A stretch of DNA of 24,929 nt from an uncultured Erysipelotrichaceae bacterium (GTDB taxonomy: Bacteria > Bacillota_I > Bacilli_A > RF39 > UBA660): NCBI GenBank assembly GCA_902766135.1, contig CACXCK010000060.1, positions 1 through 24,929 of the forward strand. Direction: 5' to 3'. Positions 1 through 19,394 of the stretch are shown piece after piece. The notes beneath the pieces are model-generated. The model saw nothing but the letters and a program-made list of their open reading frames with translations, ran no database searches and was not told the origin of the DNA. Position 1 is the stretch's first letter. Every line of letters begins with the position of its first letter. A program made the translations under genes and the position numbers.

Positions 1-1001
1 GCTAGTACTTCTGCCTTGTTAGCAAGACCATCTATTACACTTGCATCTCCAGCGTAAATCATTCTAATTGAGCCATCTCCATTAATACGTACTATTCGCC
101 AATAATACCCACCAAATTTAACATAATTATTTGTTACATTCCCTCTAAAATAATAAGAGGTTCCATAATCATCTTCTAATTCAAACAACCCACTTGTTTG
201 CTCTGCTTTTCCATCGTTATCTACATTAGCTGCTCTTGGGGCTATAATACTAAAGTCAGGATTAGAGGTAGTACTTGGAGTTACAACTAAAGTACTATCT
301 AATGCTTGCAGTTGTTCTAATGTTTCCATTGATGGGTCTGTTACTTCAAGTACATATTTAACTGTTATTTTACTACTAAAATCTAGTCCTTGTTGAGCAT
401 TTTGATTACCATTATCTAAGTATTCATAAATAGCATAATATGTATAGAATCCATCTGGTGTTGTATCAGGTGTTTCAAATTCGGCTCCATCTATATTAAA
501 TTCTACTTGTTCTAATACTGTTTCATCTGTATTTTTTAAAGGCCCTTCATATACCTTTGTAAGACTACCAGTTATTAGTAAATTATCTTGTTTTACATAT
601 CTGTTATTGGAAACTGTTAAAGATCCTTCTTCACTTGTAATACTGTTTTCATCACTGTCACTTGTTTTATATATAGTTAGTTTTATGTCATTATTAAACG
701 CCGCTGGAACAGTTGCTTGTAAGTCTATTTCATACACTCCATGTCCATCACTATAAGGCCCAATTGTAAATTTTTGAACCCCGATAAAACCAGGATAGAT
801 ATCTCTTCCTATATTTGTTGTATCAAATGTATCCTCCCCGTAAAACTCTACTTCACCTATTGTTGCCGTACGAGCACTAGCTTCGGCATTCGTATTACCG
901 GTACCTTGTACTTGTGCCATATAATAGGCATAAGTTATACCTATTGTTATGACTAAGATGCTTATTATCAAAAGTGTTAAGCTATACTTTTTGTTATTCA
1001 T
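1..1001 (-). CDS. Secreted protein with TasA/CalY-like N-terminal module and DUF6273-like downstream domain; 3' end outside the window; paralog of 6467..8167
   Basis: Not in the ORF track. Manual translation: ATG at 1001 after an AGAGGT RBS, then 333 stop-free codons to the edge. Reads MNNKKYSLTLLIISILVITIGITYAYY...IYPGFIGVQKFTI...EYLDNGNQNAQQGLDFSSKITVKY...DDYGTSYYFRGNVTNNYVKFGGYYWRIVRINGDGSIRMIY. Approx. 60% identical by hand alignment to the first 215 aa of the 8167 gene. Confidence 0.9.
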   Translation of the reverse strand, partial: MNNKKYSLTLLIISILVITIGITYAYYMAQVQGTGNTNAEASARTATIGEVEFYGEDTFDTTNIGRDIYPGFIGVQKFTIGPYSDGHGVYEIDLQATVPAAFNNDIKLTIYKTSDSDENSITSEEGSLTVSNNRYVKQDNLLITGSLTKVYEGPLKNTDETVLEQVEFNIDGAEFETPDTTPDGFYTYYAIYEYLDNGNQNAQQGLDFSSKITVKYVLEVTDPSMETLEQLQALDSTLVVTPSTTSNPDFSIIAPRAANVDNDGKAEQTSGLFELEDDYGTSYYFRGNVTNNYVKFGGYYWRIVRINGDGSIRMIYAGDASVIDGLANKAEVL

Positions 1002-6466: not shown

Positions 6467-8167
6467 TCAAACACTCAAAGTGAATGGGGCACTTGGTGTT
6501 CCTTCCCCTGAAATTTGGACAGAGGATATCAGAAACAAGGCCGGCCGGACAACATAGAGATTGAAAGCAGTGCGGTTGCTGACACGCCCGCCTGAATACA
6601 CGCTGAACACATAGACAGAATAGATGGAATACGCAAACGGCGACATTGTCCATTGATATGTTGAATTATATAACCAGTCATTTGTATAACAATTGTTGGT
6701 ATCGTAATTATTAAGATTGGTATTTGCAAGACAATTTGTTCTTGCTTCTCCTCCTACTGCATACCCATAATCTGATGGACTCATTAAGCCTACATATCCT
6801 TCCCATGTTGTTGTTCTATTTACTGTATCATTACACCAGGAACCTGAAGTACATATCTTTCCAGTATTATTACTTCTTTCGTATTCATAGAATTTACTTG
6901 CAAGTCCTAATCCATCTCCGCTTTTAAAATCATCATTTTCCCCTTGACTTCCTAAGTTCCATGTATGTTTATCTATCATGCTTTTAGCTGATTCACTAAG
7001 TCCTGTTGCACTAAAATCACAGGTAGTATAGGCATTTTTACTTGAATTATAGCAATTTCCTGACTGTTTATTCCAGTACAAACTATTATTGGCATAAGTA
7101 CCTGAAATCGTATTTCCTGAACTATCTTCAGCTAAATTCGTATCAAACCCTGGGTTTAATAGTTTCATTAAGTCTGCTCCCTTGTATGTTCCTGACTCTC
7201 CCCATTGATTAATTCCGTATCCTTTATTTACACTTGATGCAGATGTATCCCATGAATACCCACCTATGGATTCATTCCTGATCAGTTTAATTTGGTTATC
7301 AAACACTCCTATGATTCTCCAGCCTGCTTCTTCTCCATTAAAAGTAACATAGTTGCATGGATTAGACCCTACATATCTTAGGTTTCCAAAGTCGTCATAG
7401 GCTAAAGTGTTGGTACACCCAGATGCATCTGTTCCTTTATCTATAACTGCTGTACTCGCAGGGTCTGCATCCCCTACAAGGCTAAGAATTGCATCAGCAG
7501 CATATTTAGTCTTCTCTTTTAAATACTTAACTGTAATCTTACTACTAAAATTATAACCTTGTTGACTGTTTTGATCACCATTATTTAAATATTCATATAC
7601 GGCATAATACGTATAATATCCATCTGGTGTTACTGTAGGTATCGTAAATGCATCATTTAAAATAGTAAATTCTACTTGTTCTAAAACTGTTTTAGAAGTA
7701 GAAACTAAACTATCTTCATAAACTTTAGTTAAAGTGCCATTAACATTTAAAGTATCTTGCTTTACAAATTGATTATTTATAATCGTTAAACTTCCTTCTT
7801 CTCTTGTTAAATTATTAACACCTGTATTACTTGATTTGTAAAGAGTAAGTTTTATATCATTTAAAAACACTTCAGGGACATTGGCTTGTAAGTCTATTTC
7901 ATATACGTTAGACCCATCTTGATAAGGCGATATTGTAAACTCTTGAACACCAATAAAACCAGGATATATTTCATCTAAGTTAGCAGTATCAAAAGTATTA
8001 CCACCGTTAAACTCCACTTCCCCGATTTGACTTGTAACCGTAGTTGAAGTTGCATTAACATCTGTGGTGCCACTAACACCAGAAGCGTAATAAGCATATG
8101 TAATACTTAAAGTAACAACCAATATACTTAGAATAACTATTAATAATATAACTCTTTTTTTATTCAT
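6467..8167 (-). CDS. Secreted 566-aa protein: signal peptide, TasA/CalY-like module, DUF6273/C-type-lectin-like C-terminal domain; putative DGR target
   Basis: ATG 8167 lies 6 nt after AGGAGA; the ORF-track start at 8251 runs through the promoter and terminator. Motifs: ITYAYY, EYLNNGDQNSQQG, NYVTFNG..WRIIG, VGLMSPSDYGYA, WTMSP...VFSV.SGG.V....A.....VRPALFL. Confidence 0.9.
   Translation of the reverse strand: MNKKRVILLIVILSILVVTLSITYAYYASGVSGTTDVNATSTTVTSQIGEVEFNGGNTFDTANLDEIYPGFIGVQEFTISPYQDGSNVYEIDLQANVPEVFLNDIKLTLYKSSNTGVNNLTREEGSLTIINNQFVKQDTLNVNGTLTKVYEDSLVSTSKTVLEQVEFTILNDAFTIPTVTPDGYYTYYAVYEYLNNGDQNSQQGYNFSSKITVKYLKEKTKYAADAILSLVGDADPASTAVIDKGTDASGCTNTLAYDDFGNLRYVGSNPCNYVTFNGEEAGWRIIGVFDNQIKLIRNESIGGYSWDTSASSVNKGYGINQWGESGTYKGADLMKLLNPGFDTNLAEDSSGNTISGTYANNSLYWNKQSGNCYNSSKNAYTTCDFSATGLSESAKSMIDKHTWNLGSQGENDDFKSGDGLGLASKFYEYERSNNTGKICTSGSWCNDTVNRTTTWEGYVGLMSPSDYGYAVGGEARTNCLANTNLNNYDTNNCYTNDWLYNSTYQWTMSPFAYSIYSVYVFSVYSGGRVSNRTAFNLYVVRPALFLISSVQISGEGTPSAPFTLSV
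6520..6655 (-). other. Putative DGR variable region (VR); boundaries approximate
   Basis: 57/110 G+C at 6541-6650 versus 15/60 at 6661-6720. Coding-strand A is 14/100 at 6541-6640. 25 of 30 codons from TTT(6637) to GTC end in T/C. Confidence 0.75.
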
Positions 8168-8976: not shown

Positions 8977-9663
8977 TTACATACTAACATTAAAAAAATG
9001 TTTAATATTTTTTATAACTTTTTTCTCAATTCGTGAAATATAAGACTGACTTATCCCTAGAATATCTGCAACTTCTTTTTGTGTATAACTCCTTGTATTA
9101 TTAAGTCCATAACGCATAACCATTATTTGTCTTTCCCTCTCATTTAGTTTATTTATTTCTGAAGAAACAAACTTACTTTCTATTTTCTTAATATAACTAT
9201 CACTTACTAGATCAGAATCAGTTCCTAAAACATCCTCTAAATGTAATTCATTACCTTCACTGTCATAATTTAAACTATCTTCCAAAGATACTTCTTTCCG
9301 TCTTTTTTTATTTTTTCTAATATACATTAATATTTCATTAGCAATACATCTAGAAGCATATGTAGCGAGCTTAATATTCTTATCAATCTTATATGTTTCA
9401 ATCCCCTTAATTAAGCCAATTGACCCAATACTTATTAAATCTTCCATATCATAACCTGTACTCTCATACTTCTTTGCTAAAAAAACAACTAACCTTAAAT
9501 TATGCTCTATTAAAGTTTCCCGAGCATCATCACTCCCTTTATGCATCTCTATTAATAAAGCTCTTTCCTGTTCCAAATCAAGTGGGGGTGGAAGCTTATC
9601 ACTACTCCCAATATAAAAACATTCATTATATTTTTTTAACCAACGAAGTATTTTCTTTATCAT
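8977..9663 (-). CDS. sigE: Sporulation sigma factor pro-SigE
   Basis: YIGSSDKLPPPL, LIEHNLRLVV, EDLISIGSIGLIK, KLATYASRCIANEILM, TQKEVADILGISQSYISRIEK. ATG 9663 follows GGAGG and overlaps the spoIIGA stop (ATGA). Confidence 0.93.
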   Translation of the reverse strand: MIKKILRWLKKYNECFYIGSSDKLPPPLDLEQERALLIEMHKGSDDARETLIEHNLRLVVFLAKKYESTGYDMEDLISIGSIGLIKGIETYKIDKNIKLATYASRCIANEILMYIRKNKKRRKEVSLEDSLNYDSEGNELHLEDVLGTDSDLVSDSYIKKIESKFVSSEINKLNERERQIMVMRYGLNNTRSYTQKEVADILGISQSYISRIEKKVIKNIKHFFNVSM

Positions 9664-10409
9664 AGTTCCTCCAAACATTTAATATTTAATATACAATCAG
9701 TAGTCCCATTCATTAAATTATTATTACTAACCCCTACATAACAATTTTGAATTTTTTTTCCTTCCACAAAAATATTACATACCCTAATACATTTTAATAG
9801 CCCATGTCCATTCAAAGTATTAAAAGGAACATATATAGTACAATAATCGTAAGTTGGAATCAAACCATCACGTACTAAAATAATCGGTCGATGCGTAAAT
9901 GGTTCAATTAACTTATTACCAGTATCTAAATACATATTTAAAAAAACAATTTTGCCCTTATAAAATTCAATATATCCCGTATATAAATGCTGGTACACAA
10001 CTCTTCTTTTATATAACTTCATAAAAAGATATGCACTTAAAGGTCCAAATAGAACTACTAATATAACATAAATTAAATTTGCTTCACTTATTAAATATAA
10101 AAAATAACAACAACCAGCCGTAATAGTTCCGAGCATATAAAAATAAATAACATTTTCTAAAACATAATGAAAAGACTTTGCTCGAAAAGAAATAATACAC
10201 ATCATAGTACTACTAAGTACTCTAATACCAAGCATCATAATTTTATTAATATCAAGTACTAAAAAAATTAATGATAATTCACCAATAAAACTTGCTAGAA
10301 AAATTCTTCTAAATGAAGCTTGCCTTTTAAGTATTTTATTAACACAAATTAAGAGTATTAAATCCATTATATAATTTATAACTAGTAAAACATCAACATA
10401 TATAACCAT
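9660..10409 (-). CDS. spoIIGA: Pro-SigE processing aspartic protease SpoIIGA
   Basis: IYVDV...NYIMD start, multi-TM N-half, catalytic LDTGNKLIEPFTHRPII; directly upstream of sigE. Confidence 0.9.
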   Translation of the reverse strand: MVIYVDVLLVINYIMDLILLICVNKILKRQASFRRIFLASFIGELSLIFLVLDINKIMMLGIRVLSSTMMCIISFRAKSFHYVLENVIYFYMLGTITAGCCYFLYLISEANLIYVILVVLFGPLSAYLFMKLYKRRVVYQHLYTGYIEFYKGKIVFLNMYLDTGNKLIEPFTHRPIILVRDGLIPTYDYCTIYVPFNTLNGHGLLKCIRVCNIFVEGKKIQNCYVGVSNNNLMNGTTDCILNIKCLEEL

Positions 10410-17990: not shown

Positions 17991-19394
17991 TTAACCTTGT
18001 AAAGCACAAGTTCCTTCAAACAATTCATCTAAATCGTCTTCATTAGAAGGTTCATAATCTAAACTCAATTCAGTAGCTACATCACTTACAGTAGTATCTA
18101 CATCAATCGTAATAGCAAGACCAGCATCATCAAAATTAGCAGCTCCAGAAAAACCATCTAAAGAATTAGATTGCTTATAAGTATTAACAGCAGTTTGATA
18201 TTCTGTTTCATCAGCATAAGTCCAATTAATCTTCTTAATTACATTATATATTTCACCATCAGGTGTTATACCAAACACATAATTAACACTATAAGTTCCT
18301 TCACTTGAAGTAGAAGGACAAGAAGTATAATGCTCAGGAGCATTTTCATCAATAACTAGTTTACCAGTAAAAGTTTCAGAATTATCGTAAGAATCACTTG
18401 CAATTATATTAACATCATAACTTCCAACATCCATAGCAGAATAATCGTTTTCTGCCTCAAATTTGAAAGTAACAGGCGAAGCATCAGAACTTGATGCTAC
18501 AAAATCTTCAGGACTAACTGCAGTACCAGGAACAACAACTACTTCACGAAGAGTAACAACTGGTGCTTTAGTGTCTTTTACTTCAACTACAGAATGAGCA
18601 GAATCTTTTCCACAAGTAACTGTATATTCATAAGTGCCAAAAGTACTAGGATCTAAATTTGTATCAACCTTACATTCAGAAGAAGTATAACCCTTTAAAT
18701 TAACATAATTAGCAACTAATGAAGTATCAAGTGGCGTTCCAAGCTCTAAAGTTGTTAAAATAGGAGAAATAGATTTAGCATCTTTTTGCTTAGCTATAAC
18801 CAAGAAATAATATACACCAAAACCTACTCCTAAAACCAAAACAACAGCTAAAATAATTATTAATATTTTCTTACCACCCTTCTTTGGTTTAGCATCAGCT
18901 TCACTTGGTAGAGGTGGTGGTGTTGGCACACCGCCAATCATTCCTATTTGATTATTTGGGTTAGGTGGCATTGGTGCTTGTGGAGCCTGAGGAGGCACTG
19001 GAGCACCTGGTACAGGTGGTTGTTGAAAAGCAGTCGTATTATTTAAAGAAGTACTCATAAGTGGTTCAACTACACCACTTGCTTGATTATTCTCTGGCGC
19101 AGGTGGAACAACAACACCTTCTGGTTGTAAATTCATTGGTGCAGGAGGAACAGGACTTGCCATTACCCCATCATTAGGTTGAACAGGTGAAACTGTAGGA
19201 GACAGAGGTGCCTGAGGAGGCACTGGCGCACTTGGTGCAGCAGGTGCTTGTGGCACAGGTGCAGGGCCTACCGGTCCACTAACTATAGTATTAGCTGGCA
19301 TAGCTCCCTCTGTACCGGGCATAGGTTGTGGTGTCTGAGGTACTTGGGGAGTAATCGTTCCAACTTGATTTAATTGATTTTGATCATTATTCAT
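17991..19394 (-). CDS. Single-pass membrane protein with a Pro/Gln-rich N-terminal region and Ig-like extracellular region
   Basis: Approx. 170 aa Pro-rich low-complexity region, KPKKGGKK then a TM helix, then DTKAPVVTL...YDVNIIASDSYDN (bacterial Ig-like/HYR-type pattern). Confidence 0.75.
   Translation of the reverse strand: MNNDQNQLNQVGTITPQVPQTPQPMPGTEGAMPANTIVSGPVGPAPVPQAPAAPSAPVPPQAPLSPTVSPVQPNDGVMASPVPPAPMNLQPEGVVVPPAPENNQASGVVEPLMSTSLNNTTAFQQPPVPGAPVPPQAPQAPMPPNPNNQIGMIGGVPTPPPLPSEADAKPKKGGKKILIIILAVVLVLGVGFGVYYFLVIAKQKDAKSISPILTTLELGTPLDTSLVANYVNLKGYTSSECKVDTNLDPSTFGTYEYTVTCGKDSAHSVVEVKDTKAPVVTLREVVVVPGTAVSPEDFVASSSDASPVTFKFEAENDYSAMDVGSYDVNIIASDSYDNSETFTGKLVIDENAPEHYTSCPSTSSEGTYSVNYVFGITPDGEIYNVIKKINWTYADETEYQTAVNTYKQSNSLDGFSGAANFDDAGLAITIDVDTTVSDVATELSLDYEPSNEDDLDELFEGTCALQG
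18985..19231. repeat. Short intragenic direct repeat encoding APVPPQAP
   Basis: GCCTGAGGAGGCACTGG identical at 18985-19001 and 19210-19226, extending to 22 nt with one mismatch. Confidence 0.8.

Follow-up and report, generated by a model that had tools for sequence, protein, structure and literature searches.

Diversity-generating retroelements (DGRs) alter proteins by targeted, error-prone copying. A reverse transcriptase (RT) and the accessory protein bAvd copy the RNA of a template repeat (TR) with misincorporation at template adenines, and the cDNA replaces a homologous variable region (VR) of about 100 nt, so that AAY codons (Y, pyrimidine) become NNY codons while scaffold codons stay fixed. 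This mechanism is established biology, and multiple and remote DGR targets are already known, as in the TvpA family of Treponema denticola, in Legionella, and in candidate phyla radiation (CPR) and DPANN organisms. Remote targets are, however, missed by metagenome surveys (Roux et al. 2021, PMC8144416). Here we describe a gene for a lectin-fold surface protein in a stretch of 24,929 nt, referred to below as the window, which is the entire contig CACXCK010000060.1 (C60) of an uncultured RF39 bacterium; the metagenome-assembled genome (MAG) comprises 978 kb in 142 contigs and is 73% complete. The 3' part of this gene is, with high confidence, a DGR-written VR in a remote target. It is also very probable that the protein has a DGR-rewritten binding face that belongs to a remote multi-target system, the cassette of which is now, or was recently, in this genome.

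Compared with the known multi-target and remote-target DGRs, the locus is alike in that one TR/RT cassette serves several distant VRs, as shown in relatives, and in that a C-terminal VR of about 100 nt in a C-type-lectin-fold domain bears the marks of AAY-to-NNY rewriting, with bAvd and an RT carrying the IGxxxSQ motif in relatives. It differs in its host, an uncultured gut lineage of Bacilli with a reduced genome (about 1.3 Mb), in the jelly-roll (possibly TasA-like) N-terminal module of its targets, and in that its own cassette was not seen in the MAG. Bordetella phage BPP-1 Mtd (1yu0), the target of the founding DGR, likewise has a C-type lectin fold, a C-terminal VR and adenine-specific mutagenesis; however, the fold match to Mtd is weak (Z 3.8), no hairpin or cruciform follows the VR here, and the context is chromosomal instead of phage, with a target that is not adjacent to an RT. 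No paper that mentions DGRs together with RF39 came up in a literature search.

The 254-nt 3' end of the gene has four further copies with 72-78% identity in the same MAG (contigs C35, C42, C7 and C27). Each of them is the 3' end of a homologous open reading frame (ORF) cut by a contig end, and therefore none is a free template repeat. Across the 29 hypervariable codons, pairs among the window, C35 and C42 differ at 14-15 first, 12-16 second and only 1-3 third positions, whereas in the 5' flank (window versus C35, 374 codons) the differences at positions 1, 2 and 3 number 80, 78 and 144, with about 38% of third positions changed. Variation in the VR thus falls on A-templated positions (AAY to NNY) and leaves third positions nearly fixed. 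Because position 3 is nearly frozen in the VR, the template common to the three VRs must be much younger than the paralogs themselves. Saturation of positions 1 and 2 with position 3 frozen is beyond ordinary divergence, but it is expected from repeated copying of a single template when the errors fall at fixed sites. The VRs of C7 and C27 differ at third positions as well, so that they are either of greater age or dependent on a different template. At least five paralogous VR targets are scattered on the chromosome, and those of the window, C35 and C42 were very probably written from one TR. At the 3' VR boundary, 20 of the 23 columns of a short conserved element (Table 1) are invariant across the five copies, and the sequence further 3' diverges; the element is a candidate for a recognition site resembling the initiation of mutagenic homing (IMH) site.

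The position of the adenines can be examined from the other side, by reconstructing the template. When each column that varies among the window, C35 and C42 was set to A, an AAY-rich sequence of 105 nt resulted; 42 of the 99 core columns are variable among these three VRs, and about 17 codons would be templated by AAY. In a 2x2 comparison (55/3/16/26; Fisher p=4e-10, odds ratio 29.8), the columns that vary in the VRs fall together with those in which A is the majority base across eight real TRs, and congener TRs align with the window VR codon for codon. The initial annotation had predicted a template (..TCGCCGAATGCG..GTGTTCAACGTGAAT..GTCAACAACAACAATGC..) from the window alone, and this prediction nearly matches the template inferred from the three VRs and resembles congener TRs adjoining DGR RTs; the motifs to be expected in the template are GTGTTCAACGTGAAATCA and GTCAACAACAACAATGC, plus TCGCCGAATGCGAATTCC at the 5' end.

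Among 47 genomes of the genus, 40 have RVT_1, and the cognate RT clade, whose members adjoin TRs of this VR family, was detected in 26 of 46 congeners (cut-off E<=1e-30), including 12 of the 15 high-quality ones. Self-comparison of RT-bearing congener loci gave 15 loci with TR/VR pairs in which 88-100% of mismatches lie at adenines of one copy, and in relatives the homologous VRs thus have genuine TRs as partners next to a DGR RT. Congener cassettes follow the order TR, accessory ORF, bAvd and RT with the IGxxxSQ motif; that of one congener, G005, consists of TR, 121-aa ORF, bAvd-like ORF and 358-aa RT with LPIGNLTSQ and YMDD motifs. Its single TR, when compared with VRs on other contigs, has 14/15, 18/18 and 18/18 mismatches at A, and two more degenerate copies exist; we propose for the window the same layout of one TR and several remote VRs. 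Further relatives encode bAvd and an RT (IGxxxSQ motif) with an adjacent target. In a close relative, two genes of the lectin-domain family likewise have housekeeping genes as neighbors, and no RT occurs in the 10 kb around them. It had been anticipated that the DGR reading would fall if neither a TR-like copy nor a DGR RT occurred in this genome or its relatives; since relatives have both, it does not fall on this ground. In a family-wide pattern search, related TRs were found in 5 of 300 other family genomes, none of them cognate.

The composition of the VR, on which it was originally recognized, bears the same imprint. The G+C counts given for it were reproduced exactly (57/110 at 6541-6650, 32/70 at 6471-6540 and 15/60 at 6651-6710), and the MAG overall has a G+C content of 29.9%. 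The 30 codons quoted, which are codons 511-540 of the gene (6548-6637), do include 25 that end in T or C, one in A and four in G. This is the top count of pyrimidine-ending codons among all 30-codon windows of the gene (mean 16.5), and in the remainder of the gene 54% of codons end in a pyrimidine and 37% in A. The depletion of coding-strand A is also real: a recount gave 17/100 at 6551-6650, slightly more than the 14/100 given; the minimum, in the best 100-nt window, is 13/100 versus a gene mean of 35. The W..SP and VRP landmarks had been placed correctly on the two flanks of the VR.

The gene product is a cell-surface protein with an N-terminal membrane anchor, a jelly-roll module and an enlarged domain of the C-type-lectin-like kind (CTLD) of 327 aa. 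A sequence-profile search of the PDB gave no meaningful match, and a fold search had to take its place. The AlphaFold2 model has a predicted local distance difference test score (pLDDT) of 93.7 and a predicted template modelling score (pTM) of 0.91, and among solved structures it is closest to the N-terminal CTLD in 9qa6 (Z 16.1, 220 residues, Foldseek E 1.2e-7). C-type-lectin-like folds, or the FGE/PvdO-type folds related to them, account for nearly all other matches listed, two of which are the DGR proteins TvpA (2y3c, Z 4.2) and Mtd (1yu0, Z 3.8). In this model the VR is displayed at the C-terminus of the C-type-lectin-like fold, the location claimed for it at the outset. Pfam DUF6273, a C-terminal domain of DGR targets in Firmicutes and their phages, weakly resembles the VR-bearing end (profile positions 109-170 of 172), with its W..SP ... 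VRP landmarks present; but the score of 12.3 bits (E 0.15) is below the cut-off of 23.5, the domain here is about twice as large, and 6 of 64 homologues match weakly (best E 9.5e-5). The 9qa6 structure is the N-terminal domain of an immunoglobulin A (IgA) peptidase of Thomasclavelia ramosa, an enlarged, double-sized CTLD (PMC12237041). Enlargement of the CTLD, large irregular insertions and an origin in gut organisms of the class Bacilli are common to the two domains, and a single large family of enlarged CTLDs may include them both. Their sequence identity is 18%, however, and the IgA peptidase domain precedes a metallopeptidase and is not reported as DGR-diversified, whereas the target has no peptidase domain.

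Sequence variation across the lectin-domain family, which has at least 6,832 homologues (E<=1e-5) with eight or more paralogs in single MAGs, follows the same codon logic. In 64 homologues, the scaffold residues A273, S275, V281, F282, V284, G288, V290, A295, V301, R302 and P303 (domain numbering) alternate with hypervariable positions, and the column entropy is 2.56 bits in the VR versus 1.08 elsewhere. Codons derived from AAY cannot encode K, E, Q, M or W. The hypervariable positions are dominated by Y, S, N, D, G and R, and K/E/Q/M/W make up 4.2% of residues there versus 13% in the background. As for the N-terminal module, the top fold match of its model is the TasA fibre 8aur (Z 7.3), with generic jelly rolls at 6-7; Peptidase_M73 matched weakly in 4 of 47 homologues, and NCBIfam gave no match. 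The module is possibly TasA/camelysin-like.

The data thus show the NNY signature, the pattern among the paralogs, the fold, and intact homologous TR-bAvd-RT cassettes that serve several remote VRs in congeners. On the mechanism favored by these data, an error-prone RT-bAvd copy of the TR would rewrite the ligand-binding face in the last beta-strands of the enlarged CTLD. The window VR (about 6542-6643) would be a remote target, one of at least five paralogous ones; the VRs of the window, C35 and C42 would have been written from the same TR; and the genome would have, or would recently have had, the cassette in its unassembled 27%.

That the patch was not made by a DGR at all, but is a GC-rich NNY stretch produced by diversifying selection, gene conversion between paralogs or local codon bias, is hardly credible. 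The numerous paralogs could indeed exchange segments, and no TR was found in this genome; but selection or gene conversion would not spare position 3 while saturating positions 1 and 2, nor would the variable columns be expected to match the adenines of relatives' TRs (p=4e-10), the residue spectrum fits AAY-derived codons, and the homologous VRs of relatives pair with real TRs with 88-100% A-specific mismatches. The initial annotation had the VR written from a template located elsewhere in the genome. The remoteness of the VR from any RT or TR stands, as searches with PF00078, PF22296 and DNA queries confirmed that the 25-kb window has no RT, Avd or second VR/TR copy; the presence of the template elsewhere in the genome is presumed, the cognate TR and RT not having been found in the MAG. 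The only RT in the whole MAG (PF00078 search) lies outside the window on contig C85. This RT has the DGR hallmarks IGNYLSQ and YCDD and, as the sole RT, might be thought to diversify the window VR in trans. This was rejected and is very improbable, since the RT is recoded, has only about 30% identity to the RTs adjoining TRs of the window VR family, and comes with a different target on its own contig; C85 contains no TR that resembles the VR of the window. The RT itself (351 aa, L009:1192-2247, minus strand) is open only with five in-frame TAG codons read as sense, and the target beside it (252 aa, L009:92-850) ends GFPVRGVIDE. C85 (2.5 kb) probably represents part of a TAG-recoded phage that was binned with the MAG, and its own TR lies off the contig.

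The search for the cassette and the state of the VR both yielded results that weigh against a system at work in this genome. BLASTN with the VR, as had been proposed, and with four TRs of relatives matched only the five VRs in the MAG and no TR-like copy; tblastn with the G005 cassette proteins gave only the distant C85 RT, and thus neither a cognate RT nor accessory genes; and PF22296 detected no bAvd in any part of the MAG. Two TR-pattern scans of Joint Genome Institute (JGI) metagenome contigs, the first with a 3' anchor that probably overshot the TR/VR homology and the second without it, and one scan of viral contigs returned no match. The nearest TRs from other genomes are only 66-78% identical to the inferred template, and no fold 3' of the VR beats shuffled sequence as a hairpin or cruciform (z about 0). 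Two scaffold codons of the window VR have changes that are not at adenine (the codon that is ATC here is TCN in most homologues, and the one that is TCT is GCN in 50 of 64), which suggests some drift since the last homing event. Contigs from public runs (Logan) are interrupted at the VR, and the VR of C35 reappears without change in another run from the same study. In addition, the cognate-clade RTs of several congeners have decayed: that of G001 (G001:C4:13573-14592) has six stops, and G004, G012, G017 and G051 are affected as well.

Several of these points would be expected if the VR had been DGR-written in the past and the RT-bAvd-TR cassette was since lost or inactivated, leaving five frozen VRs that evolve by ordinary mutation. 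The absence of a cognate RT from 20 of 46 congeners at the same cut-off, the third-position differences in C7 and C27, and the identity of the C35 VR between runs agree with this account, as do the RT pseudogenes beside many VR-bearing paralogs, such as in G001 with ten VR-like matches despite its broken RT. On the other side, the MAG is 73% complete and split into 142 contigs, so that the absence of the cassette from it is weak evidence; 12 of the 15 high-quality congeners have the cognate RT; and homing long after the divergence of the paralogs is shown by the third positions, of which only 1-3 in 29 codons differ between the VRs of the window, C35 and C42 but about 38% in flanking sequence. 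Loss of the cassette is accordingly a possibility to be taken seriously, if the less probable one, and a live cassette in this genome is somewhat favored. In the genus as a whole, DGR decay with frozen repertoires seems common: the cognate-clade RTs of G001, G004, G012, G017 and G051 carry 1-6 in-frame stops, and these genomes still keep many VR-bearing paralogs.

The contigs of the RTs nearest to the RT of G013 (P0123-P0125) were considered as a cognate source and rejected, as their TRs are only 68-73% identical to the inferred template and therefore not cognate. Public runs that bear the window are bovine and sheep gut metagenomes; runs X1-X4 come from bovine gut. In run X6, four contigs join both flanks with 68-80 nt replaced, a pattern in which paralogs are inseparable from alleles. 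In run X1, the presumed source sample, a contig with a loose end at window position 6641 extends beyond the conserved 5' flank as a VR variant, TCGGGCACCTATTCCACTTATGC..., which is absent from the five copies of the MAG; this sample therefore contains an additional member of the family or another strain. The MAG contigs break repeatedly inside this surface-protein family (C35, C42, C7, C27 and window 3-1001).

Taken beyond this genome, we tentatively propose that the lineage keeps 5-11 dispersed lectin-fold surface proteins, some on possibly TasA-like fibre-forming stalks, all of which would be reprogrammed by one trans-acting RT-bAvd-TR cassette. If true, this would be surface hypervariation of the CPR/DPANN kind in a Firmicute, mostly missed by DGR surveys that require an adjacent VR, and the nearest solved fold, the lectin domain of a gut IgA protease, would hint at host-glycoprotein or antibody ligands. 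Remote targets are recognizable from the VR alone, by an NNY patch and the codon-position test on paralogs. One small genome of the lineage gives several genes to a DGR target system, suggesting that variable adhesion is important for these uncultured ruminant and human gut bacteria.

Table 1. Coordinates of the DGR target, its parts and its relative in the window
Feature	Position	Strand	Description	Basis
Variable region (VR)	6542..6643	-	TCGCCG to CGGCCG, aa S509..P543, WTMSP...VRP	Homology to congener TRs
Hypervariable codons, NNY type	6551..6637	-	29 codons, FAYSIYSVYVFSVYSGGRVSNRTAFNLYV	Comparison of window, C35 and C42
Conserved 23-nt element, candidate IMH-like recognition site	6525..6547	-	CGGCCGGCCTTGTTTCTGATATC, 3' VR boundary	Function putative only
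DGR target gene	6467..8167	-	566 aa; start ATG 8167	ORF listing
C-terminal enlarged C-type-lectin-like domain, VR at end	6470..7450	-	327 aa	AlphaFold2 model m6c6514b7db89
N-terminal module	7451..8167	-	239 aa: membrane anchor/signal aa 1-22 and jelly-roll beta-sandwich	Model pLDDT 73
Second family member in window	3..1001	-	C-terminus cut off by contig end	BLASTP

The sequence upstream of the target gene contains a near-consensus promoter (TTGATA-17-TATAAT, 8220-8192) as well as a terminator-like hairpin (8249-8224), and the ATG at 8167 is therefore taken as the start instead of TTG 8251. A second member of the family in the window (3-1001), the sixth in the MAG, is 50% identical to the target across 317 aa, including the N-terminal module and the start of the lectin-like domain, and the N-terminal module of the target is about 60% identical to the segment 354-1001 of this paralog. 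High G+C (at least 52/110) occurs elsewhere in the window in three stretches only, one at 7391-7502 in the target gene and two overlapping at 18873-19376. The latter peak was rejected as a second VR, being a Pro/Ala/Val-rich low-complexity coding region; it lies inside the ORF 17991-19394 (minus strand), as the N-terminus of a 467-aa membrane protein without a Pfam match.

The target gene was described as sitting among housekeeping and sporulation genes and not in a prophage, and annotation of its neighbors agrees: they encode DnaB_2, a DnaI-like ATPase, Yip1, sigma-E, SpoIIGA and P-type ATPases, with no prophage genes. A sortase gene is also present in the window, and the sortase and sporulation genes would fit RF39-like Bacilli (PMC10868615), a consistency rather than a taxonomic placement. 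In several relatives (L094-L097), spoIIGA-sigE is immediately preceded by the whole cassette (target, TR, accessory ORF, bAvd and RT). In the window (cf. 8977-10409), the target is just downstream of spoIIGA, sigE and Yip1 and no cassette precedes the operon; compared with L094-L097, this arrangement may be a rearranged ancestral neighborhood.

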